From: Pholidichthys leucotaenia
Lineage: Eukaryota
Reading direction: 5' to 3'
Assembly (NCBI GenBank): GCA_020510985.1
Contig: CM035846.1
Location: 202,907,081 to 202,971,080 of the forward strand
Length of the DNA: 64,000 nucleotides
In this document: piece by piece, positions 1,283-46,183 of the stretch
Layout: each line of letters begins with the position of its first letter
How positions within the stretch are numbered: position 1 is the stretch's first letter
The notes under the pieces: generated by a model
What the model saw: only the letters and a program-made list of their open reading frames with translations
What the model was told of the DNA's origin: nothing
Database searches by the model: none
Translations under genes and position numbers: made by a program

Positions 1283-1345
1283 GATGGTTTATCAGTCAAT
1301 GGAGACCTGTCAAAGAGTAATGACAGTTTGTCAGACAACAATAAG
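1283..1345 (+). CDS. Exon, acidic/Ser module DGLSVNGDLSKSNDSLSDNNK
   Basis: cag|GAT acceptor and AAG|gtgagc donor. 63 nt, phase 0. Confidence 0.6.
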
Positions 1346-1491
1346 GTGAGCATCATGTGTCACTGCTCATGGTTGGGTTTGATGATCCTTGATAAATATT
1401 TAGGATAAAGTACTATGATACAAAGGAGGGAAAATCAACAGGAAATCCAGTTTTTTCTAGCATTAACACTAATATTTTATTAATATTTCAG

Positions 1492-1560
1492 GACAAAGGG
1501 GGAATGTTAAAAGCGATGTTTAAGAAGGCGACAAAATCTGGCCAAGAGGAGCAGACACAG
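1492..1560 (+). CDS. Exon, basic module DKGGMLKAMFKKATKSGQEEQTQ
   Basis: tttcag acceptor and CAG|gtttgt donor. 69 nt, phase 0. Confidence 0.6.
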
Positions 1561-1965
1561 GTTTGTATGGATAAGAAATTTGATTTCATATTGCAATACA
1601 TTTTTTTTTCTTTAAAAATAGTTCCACCAGCCAACGGAATTGGCCCACAACAGCTGGTACCACTTTCTTTAATGTGAGGATTTTGACTGTAGATTGACTT
1701 TTGTGCTTAGTCTTATATGACTGATCACATTTCACAGAAAAAAAAAAATAATTAACTGGCTTCACCTAACCCAGTTTTAACAATTTCCACTAAAATGAGT
1801 TGTGTTATGTGCAAATTGTTTTGACTGGATTTTAATATTCTTTGTTCTTATATATCTCATAAAAACTGAATGTACTGTAAGTCAGCCAGACGATGACAGA
1901 ATTACCCATTATATGGCGGAGAAAATAAGTATTTCACATTTTATTTTTTTTTTTTGTTACTTATT

Positions 1966-2262
1966 TGTACCCGTAGGTAGATTTGGTTTGCAGTCTGGTG
2001 ACAAGCCACCGGCTGCCGGTCGCTGCGTGCGCGAGCGCCCTAAACCTACATGTTTTTGGTATGCGGGAGGAAACCGGAGAAATCCCGGAGTAAACCCACG
2101 CAACACGGGGAGAACATGCAAACTCCACACAGCTCACTGTTGGTCGGGGGTTGGGATCGAACCCACGATCTCATGATCCCCGCGATCCCCCGGCCGAGGG
2201 TAAAACTGTGCTGCCACAGTGCTAAACCACTGCGCCACCGTGCAGCCATGTCAATATTATTC
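1966..2262 (-). mobile_element. SINE-A copy (tRNA-like head; family at 13036, 16467, 50441)
   Basis: Reverse complement of GGCAGCACGGTGGCGCAGTGGTTAGCACTG...GAGTTTGCATGTTCTCCCCGTG. Confidence 0.7.
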
Positions 2263-2291
2263 TCATTAAACATATTTCTGATGTAGCCACT

Positions 2292-3548
2292 GACCTGAAA
2301 TTTTCACCAGATATCAGTACCAGCCCAAGTAATCCATACATATAAAGAAATCAAGGCAACTGTGTTCACAAAACAAGTTATATTTAATAAAGTGGAATGA
2401 TACAGGGAATAAGTATTGAACACATGAAGAAAAAGAGGTTCAAAAAGGCTTAGAAATCCAAGAAACCAGCTGAAATCCATCAGAATTTAGGAAGCCATTC
2501 CCCATCAATGCAAATTAATTTCAGCTGGTTAAGTCCTGATAGCCTTCAAAAAGGTCTGTGAATATCAGATTGTCACACCACAAAGACCTCATGATGGGTA
2601 GAAGCAAAGAGCTCTCTCTAGACCTTTGCAACCTTATTGTTACAAAACATAATGATGGCATTGGTTACAGCCACATTTCTAAACTGCTGAATGTTCCAAT
2701 GAGCACTGTTGAAGCCATCATTTGGAAGTGGAAAGAACATCATTTTACCATAAACCAACCATGACCAGGAGCTCCTCGCAAGATTTCTGACAGAAGAGTC
2801 AAAAGAATTATCAGAGGAGTTATCCAAGAGCCAAAGACTACTTGTGGAAAGCTCCACAAAGACCTGGAGTTAGCAGGTACTGCTGTTTCAAAGAAAATAA
2901 GTAATGCACTCAACTGACATGGGCTCTATGCCTGCTCACTTCACAGGGGAGAAATGGCACTGCACATCTCATCATGGTGTGGGGGTATTTTTCAGCACAT
3001 GGTACAGTCAGACTTCATATATCTGAAGGAAAGATGAATGGACAAAGGTGCAGAGACATCCTTGATAAGAACCTGTTGTCATCTGCCAAGATGCTGAAGA
3101 TGAAACAAGGGTGGACATTTCATCAAGACAATGATCCCAAACACACAGCCACTCCAGAGAAGGAAAATAAAGCTGCTAGAATGGCCCACTCAGTCACCTG
3201 ACCTGAATCCAATTGAAAATCTCTGGAACAAACTGAAGACCAGACTTCATAGAAGACACCTACGGAACCTTCAAGCTTTGAAGACAGTTTGTGTGGAATA
3301 ATGGGCTAAAATCACTCCTGAGCAATGCCTGCATCTAGCTTCTCCATACAGGAGGTGCCTGGAAACTGTTATTACCAACCAAGGCTTTTCTACTAAATAT
3401 TAAATGAATTTCACCAAGCGTGTTCAATACTTATTCCATGTGTCATTCCACTTTATTAAATATAACTTGTTTTGTGAAAACGATGTGCCTTGATTTCTTT
3501 GTATGGGTTACTTGGGTTGTTATTGATATCTGGTGAAAATCTCAGGTC
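2292..3548 (+). mobile_element. Internally deleted Tc1-like transposon (family D) with ~130-bp ITRs
   Basis: ITRs begin GACCTGAAATTTTCACCAGATATC. ORF 2558-2764 is a helix-turn-helix (HTH) fragment. ORF 2974-3201 carries a DDE-type catalytic (DDE) fragment with [10 protein letters not shown]. Confidence 0.8.
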
Positions 3549-3724
3549 AATGGCTCCATCAGAAAAGTGTTGAATGAGAAAAATGTTGACATGTTCAAGA
3601 CTTATTTTTCCCACTGTATACTGCATGTTGACTGCACATAACCCCAAAATTTCAGTCCTAAAGTAATTCAATAGCACAAACGTTAACTTTTTGAGCATTG
3701 GATGTCATATTTTTGTGTCAACAG

Positions 3725-3793
3725 GCCACCTTGTCATCACAAAATCCTGAATTATCTGTCAGCAGTGACAGCTTAACAGACAAGACATCAAAG
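3725..3793 (+). CDS. Exon, acidic/Ser module ATLSSQNPELSVSSDSLTDKTSK
   Basis: acag acceptor and AAG|gtgaat donor. 69 nt. Confidence 0.6.
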
Positions 3794-3891
3794 GTGAATT
3801 CACTTGTGTGCTCCATAATATTTGTGGTTTTACTACAAAGTGAGTAGTGTGAAGCTTTGAGTGTACATCCTTTCTGTACTTGTCTTTTCAG

Positions 3892-3963
3892 GATAAATCT
3901 GGCATGTTTAGTGGGATACTGAAACGATCTCCCAAACCAGGACACACCAGAAGGTCTTCACAG
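3892..3963 (+). CDS. Exon, basic module DKSGMFSGILKRSPKPGHTRRSSQ
   Basis: ttttcag acceptor and CAG|gtgaaa donor. 72 nt. Confidence 0.6.
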
Positions 3964-4089
3964 GTGAAATATAATCTTCTGAACATGTCTTCCAGTCAAT
4001 GAAAGAGTACCCCAGTGTCTGATAAATAATAGCCTCATTGTGAGTTATACTTTAGTAAGAGGTTGCTAGAAAATTTTTTTGTGCTTCAG

Positions 4090-4146
4090 GATCTTTTGGA
4101 AGTACCAGTTAGTAATGACAGCCTCTCTGAGAAGGCCAACACTAAG
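4090..4146 (+). CDS. Exon, acidic module DLLEVPVSNDSLSEKANTK
   Basis: cttcag acceptor and AAG|gtgagt donor. 57 nt. A Tc1 element begins about 30 bp after the donor. Confidence 0.6.
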
Positions 4147-44650: not shown

Positions 44651-44799
44651 TTACGGTTCTCTAATTTTGTTCACTGTTTTTGTTGTTGTTTACAAAACAA
44701 ATGTTTGTGTTGAAGTGTCTTGGTTATTTAAAAAAAACCAACATGCTAGTACAGTAGTGGTATAGCCAGAGCTGATGTTCTGTAAAATCTGAACAATGA

Positions 44800-45240
44800 A
44801 GAATAATAAGTGTTAGAATAAATCAGGTATTAACTAGTGCCTACCTGTGGATGCCCATAGTCCTATGAACTTTGATGATGTCATAGCGAGTCCTATGATT
44901 GTGAGTGATGCAGTCCAAGGACGGATAATTTTTTCACACATAAGGAGTCGTTATGCCAACTGCCATCAAATCTAAAAGAAGAAGAAGGAACATCATAGGA
45001 CATCTGACGCATTAGGAGTTGTTATACATAGGACATCATAGGAACATCATAGGTGGTCCAATGATCTTTGGTCGTGACACAGACAGACAGACACAGAGAT
45101 TTCTTGAATTTATAGAGTGATAGAGTGATGATATTCTCTCCAGCGGTAATGTACCTGTAAGCTGGTTGCCAACCGTTAATCAAATCTAGAAGAAGAAGAA
45201 GAACTTCAAATTGCCCTGTCAGAACCAGCTGTTGTGTAAT
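44800..45240. repeat. Satellite-like repeat related to 42900-43560
   Basis: Shares the GCCAACTGCCATCAAATCTAAAAGAAGAAGAAG motif and GTCCTATGA...ACAGACAGACACAGAGATTTCTTGAATT. Confidence 0.5.
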
Positions 45241-45330
45241 GTCAGTTATTAAAAACACCGTTATTTCATTCTGTTTTTTACTTTTTACTGTTTTTTGTTT
45301 TTGTCTTTGTGTGTGGGTGTGTAGCTTCAG

Positions 45331-45402
45331 GGTCCATCTGATGACGAACAGCCCTTAGCCACAGAGGAAAAGGATGATGAGGGTCAGGACAAAAAAGAAA
45401 AG
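45331..45402 (+). CDS. Exon GPSDDEQPLATEEKDDEGQDKKEK (acidic module)
   Basis: Acceptor cttcag|GGT. This choice keeps phase 0 and matches the paralogs at 45681 and 46088. AAG|gtcttt donor. Confidence 0.55.
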
Positions 45403-45506
45403 GTCTTTAAATTCTCTTTTGCACCTCTGGTTTTTTATTTGATATTGTAGGTCTTGGAGCTATTGCTCCTCATTTAACTTAAAAAGCCACTTTTTTGTCT
45501 TTACAG

Positions 45507-45560
45507 ACTAAGGAGAAAAAACACAAACACAATCCATTTATGCCACGTACTGCAGGCAAG
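45507..45560 (+). CDS. Exon TKEKKHKHNPFMPRTAGK (NPF module)
   Basis: ctttacag acceptor and AAG|gtacac donor. 54 nt. Confidence 0.65.
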
Positions 45561-45680
45561 GTACACAGCAGCCCCTCCTGCTTTATGTTTGTACTATATC
45601 AGAAATTATTAAATCCCAAGTTAAAATAGTGACTTATTTCATTGTTATATTTGCCTTTTGTTTTTTTGTTTGGTTTTCAG

Positions 45681-45770
45681 GCTCCATTTGATGGTGAAGA
45701 TCAAAAAGAGGAGGAAGAGTCCTCGGCTATGAAAGAAAAGGATGATGAGGCCAAAGACAAACACGAAAAG
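45681..45770 (+). CDS. Exon APFDGEDQKEEEESSAMKEKDDEAKDKHEK (acidic module)
   Basis: ttttcag acceptor and AAG|gtctct donor. 90 nt. Confidence 0.6.
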
Positions 45771-45925
45771 GTCTCTTTTAAAGTCATCATATTCATTTTC
45801 TGCTTTTGATTTTTTTAGAGCAATTGTCATGTCCTTCATTAAACAAATAAATAAAAATCAAAGTGTAATTCTTGCAGTTGTTCCTTCTCATTCAAACTAC
45901 GAATGTCTTTTTTTTGTCTTTACAG

Positions 45926-45979
45926 ACTAAAGTGAAAAAGCAGAAGCGTAATCCCTTTATTCCACGTACTCCAGGCAAG
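45926..45979 (+). CDS. Exon TKVKKQKRNPFIPRTPGK (NPF module)
   Basis: ctttacag acceptor and AAG|gtactc donor. 54 nt. Confidence 0.65.
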
Positions 45980-46087
45980 GTACTCAACACCATACTGCAC
46001 ATTGTTAAACTTGAAGTTATTCAGTACAACAGTAGTTCATATCATTGTGATGTTTAGCTTTTGTCGTGTTTTTGCATTTAGCTTCAG

Positions 46088-46183
46088 GCCCCATCTGATG
46101 ATGAAGGGCTCAAGGAGGAAGGAGACTCCTCAGCCACGGAAGAAAAGAAAGATGATGAGGAGGCCAAAGACAAAAAAGAAAAG
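46088..46183 (+). CDS. Exon APSDDEGLKEEGDSSATEEKKDDEEAKDKKEK (acidic module)
   Basis: Acceptor gcttcag|GCC keeps phase 0. AAG|gttttt donor. 96 nt. Confidence 0.55.

Follow-up and report, generated by a model that had tools for sequence, protein, structure and literature searches.

The 64,000-nucleotide (nt) stretch of DNA analyzed here, from the convict blenny Pholidichthys leucotaenia (contig CM035846.1, positions 202,907,081 to 202,971,080; hereafter the window), contains most of apol1, a gene with the annotation apolipoprotein L1, the 5′ part of which is a long array of small exons that begin and end in phase 0. The explanation that we favor, with a probability of roughly 85%, is that this part of a teleost apol1 gene consists of duplicated phase 0-0 mini-exons and encodes a putative multivalent motif tether. 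A preliminary description of the sequence had recognized, between positions 1283 and 46183, a gene built from serially duplicated symmetric exons. That range covers the 5′ two-thirds of apol1 and spans E02-E30 of the exon set defined below. Not recognized at that stage were E01, mini-exons outside the repeats (E13-E15, E17, E19-E24, and E32-E33), the paralogous pairs E16/E18 (KLNPF) and E20/E22 (PVVPP[RK]P), and the identity of the gene as an ApoL.

A protein-database search with the concatenated candidate exons returned KAM9322862.1 ("apolipoprotein L1" of P. leucotaenia, 1091 residues) as best match. This protein maps onto the window at 100% identity in 36 exons, and its exact mapping defines the exon set used here (E01-E36, all on the + strand). 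The mapping superseded crude scans for open frames bounded by AG and GT, which recovered the repeated modules together with many false segments within transposons. Only the first coding exon (MNRLDNLDLDLECDDGGGVS) falls upstream of the window. The same search gave more than 100 teleost matches, mostly named "apolipoprotein L1", with lengths of about 750-1280 residues and many isoforms per species. Orthologues retrieved from other teleosts have 547-1278 residues, and most of the 120 listed orthologue clusters are 45-60% identical across 100% of the query. Collinear similarity over the full length, together with an exon order that is the same in swordfish, Labrus bergylta, and polar cod, places the gene in the teleost apol1 orthologue group. 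The coding part of the last exon, E36 (58469-59441, with the stop codon TAA at 59439-59441), encodes the ApoL domain followed by an acidic/basic tail; its product matches Pfam ApoL (PF05461) over profile positions 44-297 of 298, with an E value of 3.3e-37 and a score of 128.9 bits (curated gathering cut-off 25.9). The window as a whole is vertebrate (fish) genomic DNA of about 40% G+C, with transposon remnants and short + strand coding blocks bounded by AG and GT, and the module motifs described below are confined to its + strand frames. An Rfam search of the whole window gave no match.

The uniformity of exon phase is the most conspicuous property of the array. E01-E33 (476-55901) are all multiples of 3 and all phase 0-0, with lengths of 36-102 nt (mean 65) that sum to 2151 nt, or 717 residues. 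All 33 have an AG acceptor and 32 have a GT donor, so that the multiple-of-3, phase-0, AG/GT pattern that had been proposed for the upstream exons extends throughout this run, save at E13. The donor there (17586-17594, CAG/gctggt) is GC, the sole non-GT donor among 35 introns, and swordfish has GT at this site. The phase pattern is broken only by the last three exons, of 40, 52, and 973 nt: E34 (55999-56038, DVDGLMEWWKTVE) is phase 0-1, E35 (57601-57652, WEDLPSTDDMTEKEEA) is phase 1-2, and E36 carries the remainder of the coding sequence. Taking the phase-0 frequency as 46.3%, the share of human introns in that phase (PMC3632108), the chance probability of 34 consecutive phase-0 introns is about 4e-12.

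The modules encoded by the mini-exons are of the types GGMFSGMFKK (B), DDLS..ELSGSSDSLS (A), KLNPF, PVVPP[RK]P, KKxK..NPF (N), and SDDEGLKEE.. (D). The alternation of basic and acidic modules noted previously holds for E01-E12, which follow a strict B,A,B,A order with six of each. The B modules are basic, have the form ..GGMFSGMFKK..Q, and always end in CAG. They are encoded by E01 (476-547, 72 nt, RTASVFGGMFRRSSKSSEPSAHAQ), which lies upstream of the earlier starting point, and, as placed by protein mapping, by E03 (1492-1560, DKGGMLKAMFKKATKSGQEEQTQ), E05 (3892-3963, DKSGMFSGILKRSPKPGHTRRSSQ), E07 (10387-10446, ESGGILSGMFKKSPKRTKSQ), E09 (10773-10835, ETGGMFSGIFKKPLGSQTHSQ), and E11 (11071-11124, EKGGMFSGMFRKKGAKSQ). 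The A modules are acidic and serine-rich, of the form DDLS..ELSGSSDSLS..K, and comprise E02 (1283-1345, DGLSVNGDLSKSNDSLSDNNK), E04 (3725-3793, ATLSSQNPELSVSSDSLTDKTSK), E06 (4090-4146, DLLEVPVSNDSLSEKANTK), E08 (10537-10605, DDLSEPSEVSGSSDNLSVNSHTK), and E10 (10924-10989, EDLLAPTELSGSSDSLSENHPK), all ending in AAG, and the degenerate E12 (17203-17268, NDLSVDDEVFAGGDAVHEKSSK), ending in AAA, which was assigned by protein mapping and cross-species exon comparison.

The central part of the array is more heterogeneous. E13 (17514-17588, DKEKREHPGESNEDQSTAEKPKTKQ), E14 (17762-17809, NGFNAAMKSTFYTNKP), at which the isoform models of Syngnathus differ, and E15 (17958-18011, KSENEEMENGDDKPNHKQ) precede the KLNPF module of E16 (18096-18149, GKLSGMMTKLNPFRSANK), the N and F of which are invariant among 43 orthologues. 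E17 (18285-18353, QEKHSDSDEESAVSSEKSSGNKQ) separates it from a second KLNPF module, E18 (27725-27778, NFMAETLSKLNPFHSAEK), which has 73% DNA identity with E16. Two paralogous PxxP modules, E20 (28614-28691, ..SETPVVPPRPRAE) and E22 (28987-29064, ..TEPPVVPPKPSK), are interspersed with E19 (28341-28406, KDTEHTETQKENETQVEEKPEL), E21 (28778-28837, EMRGMSTYDKVKPRSAENNK), and E23 (29174-29224, ELNRPGKHDQQKQNNQQ), and are followed by E24 (33699-33782, NQSGDDGVEEESAATKAGDEMKLLESKT).

From E25 to E31, basic N modules of the type KKxK..NPF alternate with acidic D modules of the type SDDEG... The NPF-plus-acidic pair had been reported as repeated three times between 41979 and 50127, and this is the case: E25 (41979-42035, TKVKKQKHINPFMPRTGGK) pairs with E26 (45325-45402, LQGPSDDEQPLATEEKDDEGQDKKEK), E27 (45507-45560, TKEKKHKHNPFMPRTAGK) with E28 (45681-45770, APFDGEDQKEEEESSAMKEKDDEAKDKHEK), and E29 (45926-45979, TKVKKQKRNPFIPRTPGK) with E30 (46082-46183, LQAPSDDEGLKEEGDSSATEEKKDDEEAKDKKEK), after which comes a fourth, lone NPF exon, E31 (50077-50127, TKVKKRKKFNPFMAQVK), with an NPF that is invariant in the 43 orthologues. 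An internal CAG in E30 (46085-46087) is homologous to the acceptor of E28. The run ends with E32 (51256-51291, AKANQRRSEAAE), of 36 nt, and E33 (55824-55901, NEGPKRTVFDQLEDLRIDPSGEENYQ), the last phase 0-0 exon. Every exon that the preliminary description had placed individually (E02-E06, those in the regions 10387-11124 and 45507-46183, E25, and E31) is present as described.

Paralogous exons resemble each other at the DNA level well beyond shuffled sequences, with identities of 94% for E25/E27 (z 22), 80% for E28/E30 (z 18), 73% for E08/E10 (z 17.6), and 65% for E07/E09 (z 9). Within the N/D region the resemblance includes introns. The units opened by E27 and E29 (the second and third, starting at 45507 and 45926) align end to end with a period of 419 nt, and with splice signals trimmed, homology is still detected between the E27-E28 and E29-E30 introns (z 4.4), between the sequences upstream of E25 and of E27 (z 4.7), and between the sequence upstream of E26 and the E29-E30 intron (z 3.6). 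The first N/D unit is interrupted by a 3.3-kb intron containing a Tc1-type transposase. The A/B introns show no homology once splice signals are trimmed (z -1.1 to 0.9). The flank homology that had been set as a check on tandem duplication is therefore present in the N/D units, with their 419-nt period and z of 3.6-4.7, and absent from the A/B units, which share nothing beyond splice signals. This absence, together with the shortness and simple composition of the A/B modules, would fit convergence, in which selection favored the same short motifs in exons of separate origin, rather than duplication. We consider such convergence highly unlikely, however, because the A/B exons share 60-73% DNA identity (z up to 17.6, for E08/E10), identical sizes and phases, and a strict B-A order; moreover, the N/D units already represent, in part, duplicates of intermediate age with partly decayed intron homology, and recent duplicates with intact intron identity are found in polar cod, as are near-identical pairs within Labrus.

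These comparisons were made by mapping orthologues of swordfish, Labrus bergylta, and polar cod onto their own genomic loci, using single-product or X1 proteins. All three loci have the same phase 0-0 architecture. For 11 of the 12 A/B exons of the window, the best match is the swordfish exon in the same position, the exception being E08, which is best matched by swordfish module 10, and all 12 are closer to a swordfish exon than to any paralogue within the window. The A/B duplications therefore predate the split from swordfish, and it is because of this age that their introns, having had time to diverge, lack homology. As judged from exon similarity, the comparison shows the A/B array to be old and stable in P. 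leucotaenia, with one-to-one correspondence to that of swordfish. The N/D array expanded more recently: there are four N and three D modules here versus two N and one D in swordfish, and intron homology persists. In Labrus, central A/B pairs are 77-91% identical within the species, above their similarity to their own orthologues. In polar cod, a four-exon A,B,A,B block is duplicated 2.2 kb apart with introns that are about 97-100% identical, and this shows the mechanism directly, namely segmental tandem duplication of exons plus introns.

Module number differs widely between species. NPF exons number four in P. leucotaenia, two in swordfish, three in Labrus, and up to seven in Fundulus; counts made by regular expression over 120 proteins are approximate and serve only to show that the number varies. 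Between the equivalents of E12 and E13, swordfish (GGGAAKILKNPFTSSSQ), polar cod, and Labrus (where it is degenerate, GEASAKKKYPFTSSQ) have an exon of the type GG..KILKNPF, of which no open remnant was found in the 245-nt E12-E13 intron of P. leucotaenia (17269-17513). Going by this comparison, the module is lost in the P. leucotaenia lineage. The proposal of serial tandem duplication is thus upheld by exon DNA similarity, by N/D intron homology, by the polar cod block, and by the species differences in module number. Mechanistically, the arrays were enlarged by unequal tandem duplication of DNA segments that contained exon pairs, or longer blocks of exons, and their short introns. Since all of the introns are in phase 0, each module gain, loss, or skip stays in frame.

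The B+A pair is not restricted to this gene. Among representatives clustered at 50% identity there is a further set of long ApoL proteins from teleosts, of 1100-1700 residues, several of which are named apold1a (Osmerus, Sardina, and Pungitius) and which also includes unnamed moray eel proteins. Their A/B arrays are even longer, NPF modules are absent, and the C terminus is a long K/E-rich tail. At the moray eel locus (4808-14479 of locus L005) the B exons are 66-78 nt, mostly 72, and the A exons 42-69 nt, mostly 63-69, all phase 0-0, and the introns measure 73-134 nt in densely packed stretches but are longer elsewhere. The pair of a 72-nt B exon and a 66-nt A exon seen in apol1 is present in this moray eel homologue, which resembles the apold1a proteins, and is thus common to an early- and a late-branching teleost and, apparently, to two related genes. 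In the catfish orthologue, A+B+PxxP triplets have been amplified independently; a search seeded with this protein returned no cyprinid protein. The nearest relatives in gar and bichir are short or without A/B modules, and so, from limited sampling of sequences, the array looks like a teleost innovation. A relative in Arapaima gigas has about 30 copies of a ..KPDIFQ.. unit, and some NPF, before the same ApoL domain; on this evidence, its lineage has evidently rebuilt the N-terminal extension from another module.

Seven isoforms are annotated for P. leucotaenia. They differ by skipping of E18 (in T4 and T5), by use of the tandem CAGCAG acceptor of E17 (18285/18288), by an alternative acceptor 9 nt upstream of E24, which adds FLQ in T1, T2, and T4-T7, and by alternative first exons, from which T6 and T7 start. 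E18 is also skipped in models of at least six other species. Among 13 further species, the members of isoform pairs differ solely by in-frame blocks, the sizes of which correspond to modules: an 18-residue block equivalent to E18 (at least six species), a 16-residue block equivalent to E14, blocks of 47, 93, or 141 residues made up of one to three A+B pairs, and blocks of 43-48, 86, or 176 residues made up of N+D pairs. Going by the annotated isoform models, E18, at least, would be an alternative cassette exon. The frame-neutral skipping that had been anticipated is seen at the level of gene models, for E18 here and for whole modules or pairs in those 13 species; the "extensive" alternative splicing that had been thought possible goes beyond what these models show. 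Taken with the comparative data, these results show an array, with one exon per motif, that has gained and lost modules through unequal tandem duplication, is held in frame by its uniform phase 0, and, by annotation, includes at least one conserved cassette exon.

We have also asked how likely it is that the long N-terminal extension is an artefact of annotation and that the true gene consists of E33-E36 only. The zebrafish apol1 gene is described as a 2.6-kb locus, encoding a peptide without a secretory domain (PMC4492502), and the different first exons of T6 and T7 would be in keeping with a short gene. However, in another fish the RNA-derived assembly of a public sequencing run includes a 4159-nt contig in which 5′ and 3′ untranslated regions flank an uninterrupted 992-codon open reading frame (ORF) that encodes the complete series of modules. 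This contig has no equivalents of E17 and E18 and, from its sequence, is the spliced transcript of an orthologue. The existence of such an intron-less 4.2-kb transcript encoding a full modular protein, the conservation of reading frame, splice sites, and exon order across more than 100 species, the invariance of motif cores, and a succession of 33 stop-free, in-phase exons that cannot be due to chance leave an artefact barely credible.

The protein encoded by the array is predicted to be disordered. In an AlphaFold2 model (43 orthologues), secondary structure is absent from residues 1-715, for which the predicted local distance difference test score (pLDDT) is mostly 30-49; these measures were taken as a proxy for disorder, in place of a dedicated disorder predictor. 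Helices begin at residue 719, within E33, and continue through the ApoL domain, so that disorder gives way to folded structure at the point where the run of phase 0-0 exons ends. The 717-residue N-terminal extension is thus predicted to be disordered, ahead of a helical, strongly conserved ApoL domain encoded in one large terminal exon. In the alignment of the 43 sequences the ApoL domain is almost invariant, and in the extension it is mainly motif cores that are fixed, among them F26 and G28 of FGGMF, N350 and F352, and N692-P693-F694, in surroundings that vary. Such a pattern of sequence conservation is typical of short linear motifs. Six NPF tripeptides, candidate ligands of EH domains, lie in the predicted disordered region, and of these N350/F352 and N692-P693-F694 are invariant in the 43 sequences. 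A PDB sequence search with the ApoL exon gave weak matches only (E ~0.009), to the bacterial toxins NheB (6tao) and MakE (6w08); the similarity to these ClyA-family pore-forming toxins falls on the glycine/alanine-rich hydrophobic hairpin at 58614-58886.

From these features we infer EH and SH3 binding, and a tethering role, for the motifs of the extension. It would be a multivalent array of short linear motifs, comprising six NPF (EH ligands), two PxxP[RK] (SH3 ligands), probably phosphorylated serine/acidic clusters, and basic-hydrophobic patches. Such an array could tether the membrane-active ApoL domain to, or regulate it at, endocytic or recycling membranes, with exon copy number and splicing tuning motif valency. 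Multiple NPF motifs in disordered tails with proline-rich and acidic stretches are found in epsin, synaptojanin-170, Rabenosyn-5, and MICAL-L1. The likeness lies in the several NPF motifs mixed with proline-rich and acidic stretches in a disordered region. There is no homology, however, and the attached folded domain is ApoL rather than ENTH, phosphatase, or FYVE. A broader proposal would be that teleost ApoL proteins of the apol1 and apold1a types, far from being plain equivalents of the short mammalian APOL/APOLD1 proteins, are endocytic-adaptor-like, with an evolvable, exon-encoded array of NPF, PxxP, phospho-acidic, and basic-hydrophobic motifs that delivers a pore-forming or membrane-remodeling ApoL domain to compartments marked by EH- and SH3-domain proteins and with valency set by lineage-specific exon copy number and cassette splicing; this we advance as a speculation, and on balance a doubtful one.

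The main functional rival is a charge-block spacer or auto-inhibitor: the extension would be real and duplicated, but its role would be that of a generic charged spacer, of an auto-inhibitor of the ApoL domain controlled by phosphorylation, or of a driver of condensates. Blocks of opposite charge do alternate along it (basic B with acidic A, basic N with acidic D), AlphaFold2 predicts complete disorder, there is no domain-level match, and module number is free to vary among species. The invariance of the NPF and FGGMF cores in the 43 orthologues, while the rest drifts, suits specific ligands better than bulk charge, and the two functions are in any case compatible with each other. As an alternative to ligand motifs, the spacer or auto-inhibitor is a realistic possibility, although not the outcome we expect.

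The names of some orthologues at NCBI ("protein starmaker-like" and "dentin sialophosphoprotein") point instead to an SCPP/starmaker/DSPP-type protein, secreted, acidic, and able to bind mineral, as might serine/acidic repeats and phase-0 exons. This identity was rejected as next to impossible. The N terminus (MNRLDNLDLDLECDDGGG..), encoded by the acidic first exon MNRLDNLDLDLECDDGGGVS, has no hydrophobic signal peptide or other hydrophobic stretch (by inspection only), the protein ends in the conserved ApoL membrane domain, and the automatic names scatter so widely (piccolo, titin, ATRX, and others) as to reflect low-complexity matches only.

Several observations weigh against the explanation that we favor, that is, duplicated mini-exons encoding a motif tether. 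Given the lack of A/B intron homology, the case for A/B duplication depends on the comparative data and on the similarity and equal size of the exons. The evidence for isoforms consists of gene models, in which the skipping of near-identical repeats may be an artefact of read mapping, and the annotation of P. leucotaenia itself is limited to the skipping of E18, alternative acceptors at two exons, and alternative first exons. A Pfam search with the N-terminal 768 residues found nothing above threshold; the sole sub-threshold match was to p47_phox_C, the proline-rich SH3-binding tail of p47phox, at PVVPPKPSK in E22. The function of the NPF, PxxP, and A/B motifs has been read from motif resemblance only. 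Furthermore, the NPF motifs of apol1 are not directly trailed by acidic residues, which sets them apart from endocytic NPF-array proteins; the best-known ligands of EHD proteins have acidic residues right after NPF.

Other exon arrays provide a useful context. In the PEVK region of titin, phase 0-0 exons of 75-90 nt number in the dozens and alternate between two types, PPAK and poly-E. They multiplied through tandem duplication of blocks, their copy number differs among species, and many are skipped during splicing. The resemblance to apol1 lies in the many small alternating phase 0-0 exons, block duplication, and variable copy number; the difference is that PEVK is a sarcomeric entropic spring, whereas in apol1 NPF, PxxP, and basic-hydrophobic modules precede a membrane-active ApoL domain, and there is no sequence relationship. 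Fibrillar collagen genes have arrays of 54-bp exons, fixed in size and phase 0-0, that derive from serial duplication of an ancestral unit. They share with apol1 small phase 0-0 exons of serial origin, but encode the Gly-X-Y triple helix in largely constitutive exons, unlike the two alternating module types and disordered sequence found here. More generally, genes for disordered proteins tend to comprise successive symmetric exons that arose by internal tandem duplication and are often alternative (Schad, Kalmar & Tompa 2013, PMC3632108). With its 33 consecutive (0,0) exons, mostly disordered predicted product, similarity between neighboring exons, SH3-ligand-type motifs, and annotated alternative splicing of symmetric exons, apol1 belongs with these genes. 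That survey was of human genes, and teleost ApoL is not among its examples; compared with them, the apol1 run is unusually long and its exons are unusually short (mean 65 nt versus ~130-140 nt). The gene was already annotated and symmetric-exon tandem duplication in disordered regions is an established phenomenon, of which apol1 is a clear new example. A search of the literature library used here found no paper on this ApoL architecture or on apold1a.

The mammalian proteins APOL1-6 and APOLD1 belong to the same Pfam family (PF05461) as the fish C-terminal domain, and the fish gene bears the apol1 name. Unlike fish apol1, they have ~280-400 residues and no modular N-terminal extension. According to a review of the family, APOL1 proper is primate-specific, an APOLD1-like gene lies at the root of the family, and APOLD1 can be followed back to amniotes only (PMC8557400). 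The name of the fish gene is therefore nominal, and one-to-one orthology with primate APOL1 is not implied.

The introns merit brief description. Long ones (2-9 kb) are filled with transposable elements, and those free of insertions are only 81-250 nt. The elements include Tc1/mariner remnants (DDE_3 and HTH_Tnp_Tc3_2), a long interspersed element with endonuclease and reverse transcriptase, and a second reverse transcriptase ORF; segments lie at 2300-3600, 4400-5700, 43726-44439 (- strand), 19844-22537 (+), and 35197-36771 (+). The E06-E07 intron contains a direct repeat of about 1.5 kb (5807-7329 and 7416-8938, offset 1609 nt, 98.8% identity), which may have arisen by recent tandem duplication, through a transposon-related event, or as an artefact of assembly. 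Minisatellites occur at 46918-47273 (54-nt unit, 6.6 copies), 43175-43419 (114 nt, 2.2 copies), 43049-43134 (22 nt, 3.9 copies), and 49557-49625 (30 nt, 2.3 copies). Part of the E17-E18 intron (26001-28000) has a strong local GC skew (+0.33), unlike the remaining window. Downstream of the gene, at 60800-64000, there is a decayed element resembling a long terminal repeat retrotransposon, with a gag-like ORF containing DUF7041 followed by protease-, reverse transcriptase-, and integrase-like frames with stops.

The apol1 gene is an unusually clean case of an established phenomenon and illustrates well how exon duplication lengthens and shortens disordered regions. Old duplications (A/B, intron homology gone), intermediate ones (N/D, partly kept), and recent ones (polar cod, near-identical introns) can be compared side by side. 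A motif-rich extension that mammalian APOLs lack makes up about two-thirds of the length of the aligned acanthomorph orthologues, and this matters for anyone using fish apol1 in place of human APOL1. Zebrafish knock-down and CRISPR studies treat the gene as a 2.6-kb locus (PMC4492502, PMC4854397). If teleost ApoL were indeed endocytic-adaptor-like, the zebrafish "apol1" models of kidney disease, based on that 2.6-kb locus, would have missed most of the protein.

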